Positions 30,495 to 63,817 of a DNA stretch of 64,000 nt are shown one piece after another. The DNA is taken from NCBI GenBank assembly GCA_017513325.1, contig JAFXGC010000182.1, positions 17,106 to 81,105 of the forward strand, written 5' to 3'. The number at the start of each line of letters is the position of its first letter. Within the stretch, counting starts at the first letter, position 1. Below the pieces are notes generated by a model. It had not been told where the DNA came from and ran no database searches. It saw only the letters and a list, made by a program, of their open reading frames with translations. The DNA comes from Clostridia bacterium. Its GTDB lineage: Bacteria; Bacillota; Clostridia; Oscillospirales; CAG-272. Made by a program: the position numbers and the translations under genes.

Positions 30495-30712
30495 CTTTTT
30501 TCCTGCAGTGTTTCGTGATAGGGTTGCTAATTGAACCCACAGTTGATTAATGGAGTGAACACTCCGCGTAGGAATGCAGGCCTCCCGACCGCCTCTCTTT
30601 TGACAGACGAATCGGACGTTGGAAGCACAAAGCGCGGACGACGCACACCACCTTGCATGAGCAGGGTTTCACATTGTGACTTTACACGGCACTGCGGGAT
30701 CTTTTCTTTTTT
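30495..30712 (+). ncRNA. ssrS: probable 6S RNA (SsrS)
   Basis: An ORF-free ~215-nt stretch. A closing stem pairs CCUGCAGUG (30502-30510) with CACUGCGGG (30690-30698) and is followed by a U tract. Internal segments CUCCGCGUAGG and GGACGACGCACACCACCUUG...AGGGUU resemble, from memory, E. coli 6S segments CUCCGCGGUUGG and GACGACACAUUCACCUUG...AGGGUU. Confidence 0.6.
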
Positions 30713-42801: not shown

Positions 42802-43052
42802 ACACTTTCAGAACGAAAGTGTCATAGTGAGTTACATTTTTGAAACACCATCTCAAAAACAAGAATAATAAGTGATATTGTGAGACAGGTCTCACAGTGA
42901 TATTTTACCTATCGGCAAAGTGGTATTGAAACTTGCAGTTTCAGTGATATTATATTCGCATCCAAAACTGTCCGAAGGACAATATCACTGCGTATCAATA
43001 TCACTCGCCGAAGGCGAATATAACTGAGGCACCTCCGTAAGGAAGGTGCCTC
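42802..43052 (+). repeat. phased 9-mer / variable-hairpin array, copy A
   Basis: GTGATAT-type cores start at 42827 (degenerate), 42872, 42897, 42920 (GTGGTAT) and 42944. Reverse-complement cores ATATCAC are at 42982 and 42998, and ATATAAC at 43018. Small perfect hairpins lie between cores, and a closing hairpin with a GUAA loop spans 43026-43052. Confidence 0.85.
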
Positions 43053-43075
43053 CGGGTTCCTTGTTTATTTAAAGA

Positions 43076-43178: not shown

Positions 43179-44738
43179 TTACTTTGCATAATCTACGGAG
43201 CGACTCTCTCTAATGATATTAACCTTGATCTGTCCGGGATATTCAAGCTCCTCTTCGATCTTCTTTACGATATCGCGTGCAACAAAAGGCATCTTATCAT
43301 CTGTGATGATCTCAGGCTTAACCATAATACGAACTTCGCGGCCTGCCTGGATAGCAAATGATTTTTCAACACCTTCAAAGCTCTTTGCGATTTCTTCAAG
43401 CTTTGTGAGTCGTTTAATATAATTTTCAAGATTTTCGCGTCTTGCGCCGGGTCTTGCTGCAGAAATTGCATCTGCTGCCTGAACGATCATTGCAATGATC
43501 GTCTGAGGCTCAACATCGCCGTGGTGCGCTTCAATAGCGTGAAGAACTTCTTTGCCTTCTTTATACTTTCTGGCTGTGTCAACACCAAGCTGAACGTGTG
43601 AACCTTCAAGCTCTGCTGTCAGTGCCTTACCGATATCGTGGAGAAGACCTGCGCGCTTAGCAAGTGTGCTGTCTACGCCAAGCTCGTCCGCAATGATACC
43701 GGAGAGAAGGGATACTTCGATAGAGTGACGGAGAACGTTCTGACCGTAACTTGTTCTGTACTTCAGGCGGCCAAGCAGCTTAACAAGCTCGTTGTTGAGA
43801 CCGTGGATGCCTGTTTCGAATGTTGCGGCGTCTCCTGCCTTTTTGATTGAAACCTCAACCTCGTGGCGAGCCTTTTCAACCATTTCTTCGATACGTGTGG
43901 GATGGATTCTACCGTCAGAGATAAGCTTTTCAAGAGCGAGCCTTGCAACTTCTCTTCTGATAGGATCAAAGCTGGAAATTGTGATTGCTTCAGGTGTGTC
44001 GTCGATAATAAGATCAACGCCTGTAAGTGTTTCGATCGTGCGGATATTTCTACCTTCACGGCCGATAATTCGTCCCTTCATATCTTCGCTGGGGAGAGAT
44101 ACTGTGGAAACTGTGATTTCGGCAACGTGGTCTGCTGCGCAACGCTGGATCGCAAGGGAAATTATATTTCTCGCTTTATCGTCTGCTGCGTCCTTGAATT
44201 CTTCTTCAAGTTCAACCATTCTCTTTGCCTGTTCGTGACGAACCTCATCAACCATATCGTCAATAAGCTTCTGTCTTGCCTGCTCTGCTGTCATTCCGGA
44301 TATACGCTGAAGCGCCATTCTTGCTTCAGTTTTGAGATTCTGCAGCTCTTCTTTTGTTTCGTCGTTTTCCTGAATCTTCTTCTGGAGAACTTCGTCTTTC
44401 TTTTCAAGAGCTTCTGTCTTCTTATCCAGATTTTCTTCCTTCTGCTGAACCCTACGTTCCTGTCTGGAGAGCTCGCTGCGGCGTTCTTTGATTTCCTGTT
44501 CGAATTCGTTCTTACTTCTGAGCATTTCTTCTTTTGCTTCAATAAGAACTTCCTTCTTTGCCGCTGCCGCATCAGCTTTCGCCTGGTTCAGACCGTCTGC
44601 AATAATCTTTTTAGCCTGGAGCTCCGCGCTTCCGATAGCCGCCTCGGCAACCTTCTTGCGATATACGATTCCGCAAGGAAGACCGATAATAACGCCTACG
44701 ATAAGAGCAATTGCCCCTGTTATTACATATGGTAGCAT
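43179..44738 (-). CDS. rny: ribonuclease Y
   Basis: 519 aa with an N-terminal TM segment, a K/E-rich coiled coil, a KH domain ([12 protein letters not shown]) and an HD domain (LLHDIGK). Confidence 0.95.
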
Positions 44739-56600: not shown

Positions 56601-56810
56601 GCCGAACGGCGACCTGCGGTAAAGCAGGTCAGCCGAACGATGTTTGCCCTTGCGGGCAAGTGATGTTGCCTGCGCAGTGATGTTTACTGCGTAAGTGATG
56701 TTACGCCTGACGGCGTAGTGGGCAAACATCACATCACCGGCGACCAACGGACGCAGCATCACTATGAGCAAAGCGAATAACATCACTTTTGCGTAAGCAA
56801 AAACATCACT
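56601..56810 (+). repeat. phased 9-mer / variable-hairpin array, copy B (GTGATGT variant)
   Basis: AGTGATGTT at 56659, 56676 and 56694. Its complement AACATCAC(T) is at 56725, 56779 and 56802, plus shorter ATCAC copies. Small hairpins lie between them. An 11-bp long-range complement pairs gatgtttgccc (56639-56649) with gggcaaacatc (56720-56730). Confidence 0.8.
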
Positions 56811-56872
56811 CATTTATTACCCGAACGTAAAATATGGTATACCACACTATACCGTGAATGCAAAATAACGTG

Positions 56873-56899
56873 TAAAAAAGGACGAGAAACTCTCGTCCT
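56873..56899 (-). terminator. lysA terminator
   Basis: aggacgaga (56879-56887) pairs with tctcgtcct (56891-56899). A U run follows on the minus strand. Confidence 0.7.
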
Positions 56900-56952
56900 T
56901 TTGACTTTTTTATAATACTGCTTTATGAAAGGTGTCTCAAACGGATTTTTTA

Positions 56953-58263
56953 TTACATATCGTTTCTGCAAAGATCTTCATACGTTTCGCGTCTGACAGC
57001 AACATAGCTTTCACCATCCTTGACCATAACAACGGCAGGTCGGGGAAGACGGTTATAATTTGACGCCATGGAATAGTTATACGCACCTGTTACAAGCACG
57101 GCCATTGTGTCTCCGCGCTGAGCCTTGGGAAGCTTAACGTCTTCCTGAATAAGATCTCCGCTTTCGCAGCAGCGGCCTGCAACTGTTGCTGTGATCTCTG
57201 CTTTATCTGCCGCCTTGTTTGCAAGGAGAACGGAATAGTCGGATTCATAGAGCGCATATCTGGGATTATCGGGCATTCCGCCGTCGATTGAAACGTAGCT
57301 CTTATATCCCGTGATGGTTTTAACAGAGCCAACAGTATAGAGTGTAAGTCCGCTGTCGGCAACGATGCTTCTACCCGGCTCCATAAGGATGCAGGGCTGA
57401 TTGATGCCAAGCTCTGCGCACATTTTCTTTATTTCACCTGCAAGGCCCTTGATGTTTGCCTCGTAGTCGATTTGAGGATCGCTTTCAACGTAGCGAACAC
57501 CGAATCCGCCGCCAAGATTGAGAACGGGAACCTCATATCCACATTCATCCTTAACAGCTTTGATAAAACGGAGCATAATTTCTGCCGCATCGGAGAAGGA
57601 TTCATATTCAAAGATCTGTGAGCCTATGTGGCAATGGAAGCCTTCAAGCTCTATATTGGCAAGAGACAAAGTGTACTTAACTATCTCCATCGCCTGACCT
57701 GTTTCAATAGCTGTTCCGAACTTGGAATCCACTTTGCCTGTGGAGATCTTTGCCTGAGTGTGAGGGTCAATTCCGGGAGTGAGACGGAGAATAACCTTCT
57801 GGCAAATCCCCTTTTCCCCTGCAATTCTCGAAATAGCATCAAGCTCCTCACGGTTATCTGCAATAAAATGGCCCACTCCGGAGTCTATAGCAAACTCTAT
57901 ATCCGCATCAGTTTTATTATTTCCGTGGAAATAAGAGTTTTCAAGGGGGAAGCCTGCCATTTTTGCTGTGTAAAGTTCTCCGGGAGAAACAAGGTCGGTC
58001 GCCATACCTTCTTCAGCGATTATGGAATAAAGGCGTTTGAAGCAGCAAGCCTTGCTGGCAAAGAGGGGACGTGAAATCTCTCCCATATATTTTTTCATTG
58101 CATTGATATACACTCTTGCATTATGGCGGATCCTCTCCTCGTCCATAACGTAAAGAGGAGTTCCGTATTTTTCTGCAAGAGAAACTGTGTCCACCCCTGC
58201 AATTTCAAGATGGTTTTTTTCGTTTATTGAAAGATTTTCGTGAAGCATATTATAAACTTCCAA
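56953..58263 (-). CDS. lysA: diaminopimelate decarboxylase
   Basis: 436 aa with the fold-III PLP decarboxylase motifs FASKAC, HCHIGSQ, GGGFGV and CESGD. Confidence 0.95.
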   Translation of the reverse strand: MEVYNMLHENLSINEKNHLEIAGVDTVSLAEKYGTPLYVMDEERIRHNARVYINAMKKYMGEISRPLFASKACCFKRLYSIIAEEGMATDLVSPGELYTAKMAGFPLENSYFHGNNKTDADIEFAIDSGVGHFIADNREELDAISRIAGEKGICQKVILRLTPGIDPHTQAKISTGKVDSKFGTAIETGQAMEIVKYTLSLANIELEGFHCHIGSQIFEYESFSDAAEIMLRFIKAVKDECGYEVPVLNLGGGFGVRYVESDPQIDYEANIKGLAGEIKKMCAELGINQPCILMEPGRSIVADSGLTLYTVGSVKTITGYKSYVSIDGGMPDNPRYALYESDYSVLLANKAADKAEITATVAGRCCESGDLIQEDVKLPKAQRGDTMAVLVTGAYNYSMASNYNRLPRPAVVMVKDGESYVAVRRETYEDLCRNDM

Positions 58264-60003: not shown

Positions 60004-60172
60004 CACCCGGATAGCTCTCCGCAAAAGCGACAGTCGGAGTGATATTATTCACTCAAACCGGTTCAGCCCCGCACCAAAGGCTGCCCTCGGCACCTGCACC
60101 TTTAACTCAGGCAACGGGCGGTCACCCCTTTAACATCTGAGCTACTCATTGCAAAATGCACCTCTACCGTGT
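60004..60172 (-). promoter_or_regulatory. lysine riboswitch (L-box) controlling dapA-dapB-lysA
   Basis: The minus strand reads GGTAGAGGTGC...GAGTAGC...AAAGGGGTGACCGCC...GGTGCCGAGGG...GGGGCTGAAC...ACTGTCGC...GGAGAGCTATCCGGGTG. The order and spelling match conserved L-box segments. Confidence 0.85.
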
Positions 60173-60323
60173 AGCACAAGTATAGCACACCTTCAAAATC
60201 GTGTCAATATATATTTTTTATATGTAGATAATTTAAACGTTTATTTACCAAAACTATTGTAAAAATTATTTTTATGCTTTAAAATAAAATAAATAATACT
60301 GACCGAAAGGAAAGGTAAATTAT

Positions 60324-61490: not shown

Positions 61491-62588
61491 ATGGCTAATA
61501 TTCTTATCAGCCCTTCCAAGTATGTGCAGGGCGCAGGCGAGCTTAAGAAGCTCGGTTCTTATGCTGAAAAATACGGCAAAAAAGCTCTTATAGTTATCAC
61601 AGCTTCCGGCTACAAAAGAGTAGGCGCAATGATCGAAGACAGCTTCAAGGAAACAGGCTGTGAGATCGTTTTTGATTATTTCAACGGCGAATGTTCCAAA
61701 ACAGAGATCAACCGCCTTGTAGCGATCGTAGAAGCTAACGGATGCGATATGGTTATCGGCGTTGGCGGCGGTAAGATCCTTGATACATGTAAAGCGGTTG
61801 CTTATTACAAAGCGATTCCCGTTCTTATCTGCCCCACAATCGCTTCAACCGACGCTCCCTGCAGCGCCCTCTCCGTTATCTACACAGACGAAGGCGTTTT
61901 CGAAGAATACCTTTTCCTCCCTGCAAACCCCAATATGGTTCTTATGGACACAGAGGTTATAACAAAATCTCCCGTTCGCCTCACAGTTTCCGGCATGGGT
62001 GACGCTCTTGCTACATATTTTGAGGCCAGAGCAACAAAGAACAGCGACGGAACAACATGCGCAGGCGGCAAGGTTACAACAGCTGCTATGGCACTTGCTG
62101 AGCTTTGCTTCAACACACTTATGGAAGAAGGCGTTAAGGCTAAGCTTGCCCTTGAAGCAGGCGTTTGCACAACTGCAGTTGAAAAGGTTATTGAAGCAAA
62201 CACACTTCTCAGCGGTATCGGCTTTGAAAGCGGCGGACTTGCAGGCGCGCACGCTATCCATAACGGCTTCACAGTTCTTGAAGAATGCCACCATATGTAC
62301 CACGGCGAAAAAGTTGCTTTCGGTACTATCACACAGCTTGTTCTTGAAAACGTTCCCGAAGAAGAACTTGTTGACGTTATCTCATGGTGCATTGAGCTTG
62401 GTCTTCCCGTAACACTGGCTGAGCTTGGTGCCGGCAACGTTACAGATGAACAACTTATGGAAGTTGCAAAGGCTGCTTCTGTGGAAAGCGAAACGATCCA
62501 TAATATGCCCTTCGAGGTTACTGCTGAAAAGGTATTTGCGGCAATCAAGGCTGCAGACGCTTACGGACGCTATTATCTTTGCGATTAA
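61491..62588 (+). CDS. gldA: glycerol dehydrogenase (iron-containing ADH family)
   Basis: 365 aa with GVGGGKILDTCKAVA, PTIASTDAP and metal-ligand His residues (HAIHNG, HGEKVAFG). Confidence 0.9.
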   Translation: MANILISPSKYVQGAGELKKLGSYAEKYGKKALIVITASGYKRVGAMIEDSFKETGCEIVFDYFNGECSKTEINRLVAIVEANGCDMVIGVGGGKILDTCKAVAYYKAIPVLICPTIASTDAPCSALSVIYTDEGVFEEYLFLPANPNMVLMDTEVITKSPVRLTVSGMGDALATYFEARATKNSDGTTCAGGKVTTAAMALAELCFNTLMEEGVKAKLALEAGVCTTAVEKVIEANTLLSGIGFESGGLAGAHAIHNGFTVLEECHHMYHGEKVAFGTITQLVLENVPEEELVDVISWCIELGLPVTLAELGAGNVTDEQLMEVAKAASVESETIHNMPFEVTAEKVFAAIKAADAYGRYYLCD

Positions 62589-62699
62589 TTCGAATATAAA
62601 CACCCGCAGACCAAAGAACAGGGTTGCTAAGGACAGTTATCTTTGATGAAAACGGAATTTGGCACACGAATTCCCTGCTTGTGACAGTATAAGACAAAA

Positions 62700-62748
62700 C
62701 TACCCGAAGAAGAGAAAACAAACCTCTTTTTCGGGTAGTAATTTTTAT
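62700..62748 (+). terminator. gldA terminator
   Basis: ctacccgaa (62700-62708) pairs with ttcgggtag (62730-62738), followed by a T-rich run. Confidence 0.55.
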
Positions 62749-62960
62749 ATAGTGATATTCTTTGCTGCGCAAAGAGTGATATGATTGCCAACGGCAATCG
62801 TGATATTAAAACCTGCGGTTTTAGTGATATTTTATTCGCCTTTTAAAACTCGCAAAGCGAATAACACTCGGCGTTAGCCGAATATCACTGCGTAGCAATA
62901 TCACTCGCCGCAAGGCGAATAAAACTGCCCAAGTGTTCTTAAGGACACTTGGGCAAAATC
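62747..62960 (+). repeat. phased 9-mer / variable-hairpin array, copy C (best-formed copy)
   Basis: GTGATAT starts at 62752, 62776, 62800 and 62824, exactly 24 bp apart. Each 17-nt interval is a different perfect hairpin. Reverse-complement cores are at 62861, 62882, 62898 and 62919. The closing hairpin spans 62926-62955. Confidence 0.9.
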
Positions 62961-62983
62961 TGCGGGTTTTGTTATATTTGAAA

Positions 62984-63817
62984 TCAAATCAATCTGAACT
63001 TTTTTGCAATCAACTCTCCATCAACTTTGATAAAGCTGCGAGGAGTTTCGTCCATACCTGCTTCTACAAGATGACCGTCTATAACAGTCTGCAGTGTGTG
63101 AGGAGGTTCAACAAGCATTTCAACCTGGGCATACACCCATCCGTTTATAATAAGCTGATTCATTCTTTTAACCCTGCGATAGCAGATGTGATATCCAAGG
63201 GAATCAGCTTCAAGCAAAACTCTGTGCTTAACATCCTCTTCTGCGCGGCAGATGGGCTGAGAATTTCTGATAGTTACATTGTCAGTTTCAACTTCGCCTT
63301 CTGCTTCAAGCTCATCATATGTTATGTAGTCTTTAACCTCAATGGGTTCCTTTTCTTCTTCAGGCGCATCCTTCAGTTGCTTTCCGCTTTTTACACCGAT
63401 AATGAGATAATAAAGCACCCAAACGTGGATCACTACGTCAAGAACACCGGAAAACTCTCCCGCCGCAAGATACATAAGGACCATTGATACCGTGTCTATA
63501 GCAAACATAACAAGCGCGCCTATCATCCAGCCAAAATGCCTTTTGCTCATAAACCAGCAAAGAAAATATATGAGCAAAATCGCAACGGCAAAACAAACGG
63601 AAACGGCTATCATTACATCTATCTGAGTGGCCATACCCACAACAACCGCAAAATAGGGAACCGTTGCTGAGAAAAGAAGCATATATTCTGCATTGGTGAA
63701 AAGAAAAACTATGTTCACCGCCGTGAGAATTATCATCAGAAGAAGGTTCGCCCTTGCGCTCTGATACTTGGTTTTCATAATGCCATGCTGAGAGTTGTTC
63801 GCATCACTTGTCATCAT
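62984..63817 (-). CDS. hypothetical membrane protein (4-5 TM N-domain plus soluble C-domain)
   Basis: 277-aa ORF with a hydrophobic N-terminal half, an acidic linker and a ~100-aa C-terminal domain. I recognise no family. Confidence 0.5.
   Translation of the reverse strand: MMTSDANNSQHGIMKTKYQSARANLLLMIILTAVNIVFLFTNAEYMLLFSATVPYFAVVVGMATQIDVMIAVSVCFAVAILLIYFLCWFMSKRHFGWMIGALVMFAIDTVSMVLMYLAAGEFSGVLDVVIHVWVLYYLIIGVKSGKQLKDAPEEEKEPIEVKDYITYDELEAEGEVETDNVTIRNSQPICRAEEDVKHRVLLEADSLGYHICYRRVKRMNQLIINGWVYAQVEMLVEPPHTLQTVIDGHLVEAGMDETPRSFIKVDGELIAKKFRLI

Follow-up and report, generated by a model that had tools for sequence, protein, structure and literature searches.

The Gut-1 RNA motif is one arm of a two-armed hairpin unit found beside terminators in gut Clostridia

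What kind of element is formed by the array of short repeats and small hairpins at 62747-62960 of the DNA analysed here, a stretch of 64,000 nucleotides from a Clostridia bacterium (assembly GCA_017513325.1, contig JAFXGC010000182.1, positions 17,106 to 81,105; hereafter the window)? A first-pass annotation, made from the sequence alone, had described the array as a modular element of no recognised kind, present three times in the window. The three copies are indeed there, at ~42870-43053, 56630-56812 and 62747-62960, and are called copies B, A and C respectively. Copy C is a member of the known Gut-1 RNA family, described in 2010 with no function attached. The published Gut-1 model covers no more than one arm of a unit that has two and measures about 180-260 nt, and we hold with moderate confidence that this unit is a terminator-associated intergenic repeat, similar to REP/BIME or BOX elements, that acts in cis.

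The identity of copy C was determined by a covariance-model scan of all Rfam families. The right arm of the copy (62856-62927, minus strand) matches the full model of RF01706, Gut-1 RNA, with 52.9 bits (E=1e-9) against a gathering score of 50 bits. The annotation could match the element to no Rfam family; it does match one, and the claim to novelty is refuted. Other arms in the window give sub-threshold matches to the same model: 42.5 bits in copy B (42959-43026, minus strand), 34.9 bits in copy A (56635-56706, plus strand) and 33.8 bits in the other arm of copy C (62750-62833, plus strand). The corresponding short arm reaches 54-88 bits in 19 related loci that carry the canonical element; in 4 of these the long arm, too, exceeds the gathering score, on the opposite strand. 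Copy C shares with the family its three hairpins, its conserved GUGAAAU-like single-stranded linkers and stems backed by covariation, and it comes from a similar source: contigs identical to the window are from ruminant gut metagenome assemblies and the related loci from gut Clostridia assemblies. The annotation was right to set a CRISPR array aside; the Rfam model CRISPR-DR18 reaches 14.6 bits against a gathering score of 50, and copy C has repeats of 7-9 nt and palindromic spacers rather than direct repeats of 24-48 nt and unique, non-palindromic spacers.

Gut-1 was described by Weinberg et al. in 2010 from 43 human-gut metagenome sequences, was rated “RNA: Y”, that is, a probable non-coding RNA, non-cis-regulatory, and was given neither an organism nor a function (PMC2864571). 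It was listed then as found in human gut only and in no sequenced organism, with a modelled length of 77 nt (PMC2864571). The flanks in the Stockholm alignment of that work show a tRNA and a terminator upstream and an inverted second arm, which were neither modelled nor discussed in 2010. No paper on Gut-1 after that of 2010 was found in the literature searched.

The layout originally read from copy C is exact. On the plus strand GTGATAT starts at 62752, 62776, 62800 and 62824, a perfect 24-nt period, and the three intervals of 17 nt are perfect hairpins. The complement, ATATCAC, lies at 62882 and 62898, with the degenerate forms ATAACAC at 62861 and ATAAAAC at 62919, and the small hairpins tcggc-GTTA-gccga, tgc-GTA-gca and tcgcc-GCAA-ggcga, the central hairpin (62832-62864) and the closing hairpin (62926-62955) are all present. 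The motif occurs 27 times in the window where 5.9 are expected, a count reached by no shuffle, and the phased arrangement GTGADAT-N14-20-GTGADAT is observed 4 times against 0.07 expected. An inverted-repeat search showed, in addition, that a more distant segment suits the left arm of the central hairpin better as a partner: 62830-62842 pairs with 62912-62924 at 13 of 13 positions, enclosing the short arm. The parts of copy C and its neighbouring hairpin are as follows.

62926-62955, minus strand: closing hairpin (H0/T1), an inverted repeat followed by TTTTATT, terminator-like for the upstream gene 62984-63817 (minus strand); 12 pairs with tail TTTTATTCGC in the terminator scan
62856-62927, minus strand: short arm, the Gut-1 RNA motif proper, RF01706 at 52.9 bits, E=1e-9, model positions 1-77 in full
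62861-62925, order within the short arm: linker L0 62919-25, hairpin A 62905-18, linker L1 62898-904, hairpin 1, linker L2 62882-88, hairpin 2 62868-81, linker L3 62861-67
62830-62842 and 62912-62924, no strand: long-range helix P0, which encloses the short arm and competes with hairpin A and with the central hairpin 62832-62864
62750-62833, plus strand: long arm, four AGTGATATT linkers with a 24-nt period and three perfect 17-nt hairpins; RF01706 at 33.8 bits, sub-threshold
62699-62739, no strand: 16-bp hairpin with A-rich and T-rich flanks, bidirectional and terminator-like, between the gldA-like gene (61491-62588, plus strand) and copy C

The closing hairpin has the form of an intrinsic terminator, a G+C-rich stem-loop with a run of T (62956-62925 on the minus strand, 12 pairs, tail TTTTATTC). 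Read on the canonical, minus strand, the linkers of the long arm are AATATCACT and its loops GCA, GTT and GCA. Copy C is placed behind the minus-strand gene 62984-63817 and faces the gldA-like gene, and the hairpin at 62699-62739 is kept together with it in strains L001-L004 and in L124 (such three-digit L-numbers label the loci or assemblies compared). Several metagenome contigs with the gldA-like gene end in or shortly before the element, L004 at a GTGATAT linker and L005 and L006 at the terminator hairpin, as is consistent with a repeat that disrupts short-read assembly. A perfect 9-bp inverted repeat (ACCCGCAGA / TCTGCGGGT, 62602-62610 / 62959-62967) brackets the whole intergenic block, both terminator-like hairpins included; it is probably not meaningful, about 0.5 being expected by chance per 500 bp on a rough estimate.

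The plan of the family was drawn from a pattern scan with one genome per species, which gave at least 120 loci with about 8 kb of sequence per genome. About 34 complete canonical elements were parsed and oriented on the Rfam strand. First comes the closing hairpin, usually a bidirectional intrinsic terminator with an A-tract and a T-tract, which adjoins the element in 32 of the 34. The degenerate linker L0 and hairpin A follow, and then three GUGAWAU linkers alternating with hairpins of 9-13 nt, the stretch that the Gut-1 model covers; overall, the canonical short arm has four GUGAWAU-type linkers and three to four hairpins of this size. The segment 3' to it is the reverse complement of L0 and of the 5' arm of hairpin A, giving an enclosing helix of roughly 10 bp that is perfect at 9 of 9 positions in 24 of 32 elements, in at least nine sequence variants. 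The long arm then has four AUWUCAC linkers alternating with three hairpins of 15-18 nt, after which there is a second terminator or the unit runs straight into the promoter of the next gene. Since the long arm can pass the RF01706 threshold on the opposite strand, the unit has an approximate two-fold symmetry, either strand reading 5'-(GTGAWAT arm)-(ATWTCAC arm)-3'. The published Gut-1 has the same three short hairpins, GUGAAAU/GUGAUAU linkers and gut source, and the same order of tRNA, terminator, Gut-1 and inverted arm in the Weinberg flanks. It differs in that its 77 nt lack the complementary arm, enclosing helix and closing terminator hairpin of the real unit of about 180-260 nt, in its listing as human gut only, where we find ruminant, chicken, horse and human gut Clostridia assemblies, and in its description as a stand-alone non-coding RNA, where context and polymorphism favour a terminator-associated repeat.

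It had been proposed that constant linkers combined with stems that change in sequence and still pair reflect a selected fold, and the family bears this out. Among 231 distinct spacer hairpins 186 are perfect, and 1331 of 1390 stem pairs (96%) are Watson-Crick. When pairs were counted from the linkers as anchors, indexed inward over the outer five pairs and compared with 1000 partner shuffles, 92-96.5% were canonical against 48-52% with partners shuffled (no shuffle gave more than 0.75), and 3-6 kinds of pair occur at each stem position. These linker-anchored counts were used in place of RNAalifold, which on a MAFFT alignment of the long arm recovered hairpin 3 alone, because variable stem lengths misalign in MAFFT; in that hairpin all 6 pairs show compensatory changes.

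Comparison of orthologues points the same way. In the copy C of L124 changes fall on 8 of 52 loop positions, 5 of 138 stem positions and 1 of 56 linker positions (loop versus stem p=0.008), and the copy B orthologues in L033 and L147 have several double, compensatory stem changes, a pattern of purifying selection on pairing. The contrast of copy C with its flanks in L124, the unalignable right flank being set aside, is suggestive at most. Orthologues of the gldA locus with 86-95% protein identity are uninformative on copy C because the synteny downstream differs. The annotation's further proposal, a ladder in which left linkers pair with right linkers, appears in single-sequence minimum-energy folds but clashes topologically with the enclosing helix that the family conserves. 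Deviant linkers within elements are compensated in L081 (GTGAAGT/ACTTCAC) and not in L032, L095, L099 or copy B of the window.

A genome-wide, dispersed family had also been predicted, and the element does occur in ~80 gut Clostridia assemblies. Among the matches listed, ~80 of the 120 loci have palindromic spacers, and nearly all loci are gut Clostridia assemblies of Acutalibacteraceae, Oscillospiraceae, Ruminococcaceae, Christensenellaceae and “Eubacteriales”; the hosts of the listed loci are ruminants, humans, chickens and horses. One scaffold from a ruminant-gut metagenome has the same sequence as the window, whose closest named relative is an Acutalibacteraceae assembly with 92% identity in one intergenic flank. 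Outside the copy by which each locus was ascertained, 5 further copies were found in 526 kb, or ~1 per 100 kb in related genomes compared with 3 in the 64-kb window, from which tens of copies per genome would be expected.

Arrays of GTGAAAT linkers and palindromic hairpins were also observed in Verrucomicrobia, in Akkermansia/Akkermansiaceae assemblies (L009, 2314-3400; L013, 6985-7200). Here the second array has a different linker, CGAGATTG, rather than a complementary one, and L009 has two near-identical units spaced 439 bp apart and, ~500 bp beyond them, a third array that has diverged further. Such arrays may belong to a separate, related family or reflect contamination in binning.

The position of the elements relative to genes is biased. 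Fifteen of 40 complete elements sit 53-85 nt behind the 3' end of a tRNA gene on the same strand, with 11 tRNA identities represented, and one lies behind a 23S-5S-tRNA operon. Where the upstream unit could be resolved, in 29 cases, it runs in the direction of the element in 25, and 15 of these 25 units are tRNA genes; of 30 downstream genes 18 are co-directional and 12 convergent. All copies are intergenic and their arms inverted, so that in location, behind a co-directional unit in 25/29 and facing a convergent gene in 12/30, they resemble REP/BIME.

The elements are also gained, lost and resized. Between strains with flanks of 95-100% identity, each of the three copies in the window varies. 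In L002 and L003 copy C has lost exactly the 69 nt within the long-range helix, between two TCGCC repeats. Copies A and B are laid out as follows.

42870-43053, minus strand: copy B, downstream of the RNase Y gene (43179-44738, minus strand)
43026-43053, 42959-43026 and 42870-42951: closing hairpin, short arm (Gut-1, 42.5 bits) and long arm of copy B
56607-56941, plus strand: copy A block of 335 nt, with closing hairpin, short arm, long arm and its own terminator-like hairpin
56635-56706: short arm of copy A, Gut-1 at 34.9 bits, with linker GTGATGT/ACATCAC; the long arm, partly decayed, extends to ~56812

Compared with three other assemblies, copy B in the window has one 20-nt linker-plus-hairpin unit fewer. 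Copy A lies inverted between a lysA-like gene and a DAHP synthase gene, and its block interrupts the loop of a terminator that follows the 436-aa ORF 56953-58263 (minus strand), an Orn/DAP decarboxylase (lysA-like). L002 and L003 are without copy A and have at the site an intact terminator, AAAAAATCCGC-CGAA-GCGGATTTTTT.

Changes of other kinds were seen further afield. In L124 (~260-305) the 14-nt hairpin tcggcGTTAgccga, which is at 62868-62881 in the window, has become a perfect palindrome of ~42 nt with both arms extended (tcttttggaaatatttcgccgttggcgaagtattccaaaaga); because the change is symmetric, it suggests a template switch or a cassette replacement, not point mutation. L045 and L057 have ~70 nt of downstream flank in common (taaaaacgaacggttat...), and yet the linkers are all GTGATAT in one and GTGAAAT in the other, so that eight linkers appear to have changed in concert, or the element to have been replaced.

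L046 and L085 each have two copies in one contig, 95.5% (247 nt) and 96.8% (218 nt) identical respectively, the upstream terminator included. These direct repeats (L085, 4259-5189; L046, 171-3156) bracket small blocks of accessory genes just downstream of tRNA-Ala and tRNA-Asn. Judged by ORF translations only, the L085 block appears to encode a 134-aa leucine-rich-repeat-like protein and the L046 block histidine-phosphatase-like, pyrophosphatase-like and methyltransferase-like proteins; no transposase or integrase was seen in either block by reading ORF translations, no profile search being run. Between the two copies in L085 the terminator loop is inverted (TTAC and GTAA), and a tRNA-like 3' fragment lies behind the second. 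No pair with both flanks in common, and hence no cross-species empty site, was found among the at least 120 loci.

Is the fold then made in RNA or in DNA, and on which strand? Wobble (G-T) pairs are 2.5% of stem pairs across the family. There is no G-U versus A-C asymmetry in the Gut-1 arm (4 vs 3), and in the long arm G-T pairs modestly favour the canonical strand (20 vs 8, p=0.036). Triloops make up 57% of loops; on the ATWTCAC strand of each arm c-GNA-g is found in 79 of 123 triloops and c-GNNA-g in 46 of 74 tetraloops, and 190 of 216 hairpin loops are closed by a C-G pair. In the short arm this bias falls on the strand opposite to the Rfam model. The same type of loop and closing pair is that of the extraordinarily stable DNA mini-hairpins d(GCGNAGC)/d(GCGNNAGC) (PMC13037366, PMC3201870). 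The suggestion that GNRA loops point to RNA is accordingly weak: triloops, mostly c-GNA-g, prevail, and 20 of the 46 GNNA tetraloops (43%) are GNYA and not GNRA, the signature of DNA mini-hairpins. Furthermore, predicted folding of the complete unit is as strong for one strand as for the other, whether as RNA or as DNA (minimum-energy z-scores of -8.7, -10.1 and -9.9). Loops, wobble pairs and folding together fit a structure that forms on both strands or in DNA; RNA is also compatible.

The explanation that we favour is of a moderately repeated extragenic element of gut Oscillospirales-type Clostridia, situated at the 3' ends of transcription units and especially of tRNA and rRNA operons, which would be transcribed by read-through only. 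It may act in cis, on read-through transcripts or on the DNA around it, as a barrier or insulator at 3' ends that is dense in hairpins and works from either direction. The grounds for this proposal are the equal folding of the two strands, the avoidance of G-T pairs and the approximate two-fold symmetry of the unit. New copies would arise by insertion at or into terminator hairpins, and older copies may change shape when their repeated linkers and hairpin arms recombine.

Known repeats resemble the element in part. REP/BIME elements of Enterobacteria and Pseudomonas are extragenic, lie at 3' ends and between convergent genes, and form mosaics of alternating palindromes with short linkers and species-specific variants; their copy and unit number vary by strain, and roles in termination and in protection of mRNA 3' ends have been proposed. 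The Gut-1 unit is like them in its extragenic 3'-end placement, in its alternating palindromes with short linkers, in having variants specific to species and in its strain-variable copy and unit number. It differs in that the REP palindrome is conserved in sequence, whereas here the stems are free and the linkers conserved, in an apparently lower copy number and in the phylum of the host. Pneumococcal BOX, boxA-(boxB)n-boxC, is built of conserved modules of 45-60 nt and is suspected of non-autonomous mobility by a mechanism that is unexplained. Like the Gut-1 unit, it is modular and intergenic, varies in how many internal units it has and is predicted to fold strongly; the Gut-1 unit has, in place of conserved modules of that length, linkers of 7-9 nt and variable mini-hairpins. 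By analogy the element may be said to work like REP, BIME or BOX rather than to be one of them. It is not REP proper, because the stems are not conserved, hairpins differing between units and copies and the 7-9-nt linkers alone being constant; nor is it a miniature inverted-repeat transposable element, because the filled and empty sites of copy A reveal neither the terminal inverted repeats nor a clean target-site duplication, the features that define one.

Several observations weigh against the terminator-associated repeat. At copy A, the one junction where a filled site can be set against an empty one, the two share CGG alone, with no target-site duplication and no terminal inverted repeats. 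Unlike REP, the element varies in its stems and conserves its linkers, and its density beyond the window is modest (5 extra copies in 526 kb). The gene upstream is not co-directional in 4 of the 29 elements, copy A among them, and the orientation counts depend on crude gene calls, namely stop-to-stop ORFs. Little RNA is normally to be expected from the element, because a terminator sits directly upstream. Lastly, the c-GNA-g and c-GNNA-g loops on the AUWUCAC strand fit DNA mini-hairpins better than RNA (PMC13037366).

An alternative that we consider unlikely, though still a live one, is that the unit is a trans-acting non-coding RNA, as the Rfam/Weinberg class implies; it could be, for example, a 3' external spacer of tRNA operons made by read-through, whose 7-9-nt linkers sponge a protein or a small RNA. 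Sponge RNAs such as CsrB and the leuZ 3' external transcribed spacer typically have repeated identical single-stranded motifs, as the unit has. Its direction agrees with that of the upstream tRNA in 15 of 15 cases, G-T pairs in the long arm are more tolerated on the canonical strand (20 vs 8, p=0.036), and the 2010 rating was that of a non-cis-regulatory RNA (PMC2864571). Yet no convincing promoter was found inside or beside copy C, one weak consensus match lying downstream of the closing hairpin, and the terminator directly upstream is strong and bidirectional. Wobble pairs at 2.5% in total, the lack of asymmetry in the Gut-1 arm (4 vs 3) and a loop bias on the strand opposite to the Rfam model also speak against an RNA. 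Moreover, all three window copies are polymorphic among near-identical strains and one is dispensable, and tens of divergent copies per genome would be unusual for a small-RNA gene.

Alternatively, and with a similarly low probability in our estimation, the unit may be a single-stranded-DNA element, forming hairpins on the lagging-strand template, in transcription bubbles or on transferred strands. Its units would be recognised by an enzyme encoded in trans, a RAYT/IS200-like HUH transposase or a recombinase being the candidates, which would move them into terminator hairpins or recombine copies and so capture genes. The loops argue for this, c-GNA-g and c-GNNA-g with C-G closing pairs in 190/216 and GNYA nearly as common as GNRA (PMC13037366, PMC3201870), as do the great rarity of G-T pairs and the insertion of copy A into a terminator loop whose empty site is intact. 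In the same direction point the direct repeats of terminator plus element that flank accessory genes beside tRNA genes in L085 and L046, the exchange of a hairpin for a longer palindrome in L124 and the inverted terminator loop in L085, both signatures of template switching at the level of DNA, and the linker variants that differ between species at what is apparently the same locus (L045 and L057, ~70 nt of shared flank). Against it, no transposase or recombinase gene was found beside any copy, no target duplication and no defined ends were seen, and an orientation bias relative to transcription is not required by such an element. Besides, different species keep copies B and C at orthologous loci, and the stems of these copies are under purifying selection.

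An origin from phages or plasmids was considered and rejected: of 120 matches listed in a scan of viral contigs ~5 are real, and plasmids gave no match, which also tells against the single-stranded-DNA element. One of the viral records, L258 (MT835815.1, “UNVERIFIED: Bacteriophage sp.”, human faeces), has at 1390-1680 a tRNA-Arg, a terminator, a Gut-1 arm and a decayed second arm. This locus already appears in Weinberg's 2010 alignment, as BAAZ01025322, which makes the viral label doubtful.

In its widest form the DNA interpretation makes Gut-1 the visible half of a new hairpin-array DNA element, in which c-GNA-g mini-hairpins and a 9-nt recognition word are presented in single-stranded DNA and handled by a trans-acting enzyme, a proposal that we regard as unlikely. 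Were it true, the enzyme would insert units into terminator hairpins behind tRNA and other genes, pairs of units would capture cassettes of accessory genes, and what has been read as RNA covariation would be made or kept at the DNA level, for instance by template-switch repair of quasi-palindromes. The DNA mini-hairpins share with the Gut-1 family its dominant loop and closing pair; they differ in being motifs of physical chemistry that are also found at phage origins (PMC13037366, PMC3201870). A precedent for such a choice is the STAXI motif, tandem small structures for which single-stranded DNA and RNA were weighed by the identity of the loops (PMC2864571). STAXI differs in having pseudoknots, UUCG loops that favour RNA and a location near DNA-handling genes, whereas Gut-1 has GNA loops and lies behind terminators. 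We know of no repeat family built from stable DNA mini-hairpins.

Finally, an array of protein sites in duplex DNA, direct and then inverted, as at transposon ends (Tn7- or Mu-like), integrase arm sites near tRNA genes or nucleoid and partition sites, is very improbable, because it does not explain the near-perfect palindromic spacers of variable sequence or their biased loops, and the spacings of 24 and 16-20 nt are not multiples of the helical phase and no terminal TG...CA ends or duplications are seen, for all that the four plus four inverted 9-mers with different spacing in each arm, the proximity to tRNA 3' ends and the direct repeats flanking inserted genes would suit it.

Two further structured RNAs were observed in the window: a lysine riboswitch (RF00168, 70.5 bits, 60004-60174, minus strand) upstream of the minus-strand diaminopimelate-lysine cluster (DHDPS/DapB/lysA-like), and a 6S/SsrS RNA gene (RF00013, 54.5 bits where the gathering score is 46.4, 30497-30704, plus strand).

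The composite architecture, the association with terminators and tRNA genes, the dynamics between strains and the DNA-type loops were not found in the literature searched. Gut-1, which has stood in Rfam since 2010 with no organism, context or function, is now placed in Acutalibacteraceae, Oscillospiraceae, Ruminococcaceae and Christensenellaceae, and the 77 nt of its model prove to be one arm of a conserved unit with two arms, tied to terminators and to the ends of tRNA operons, whose copies are gained, lost and resized between strains. The family also warns against taking covariation by itself as proof of an RNA gene; the chemistry of its loops and the scarcity of wobble pairs raise the possibility of a function at the level of DNA. 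In place of an unknown small RNA there are now three concrete alternatives that can be tested: a barrier at 3' ends, a sponge RNA and an element of single-stranded DNA.

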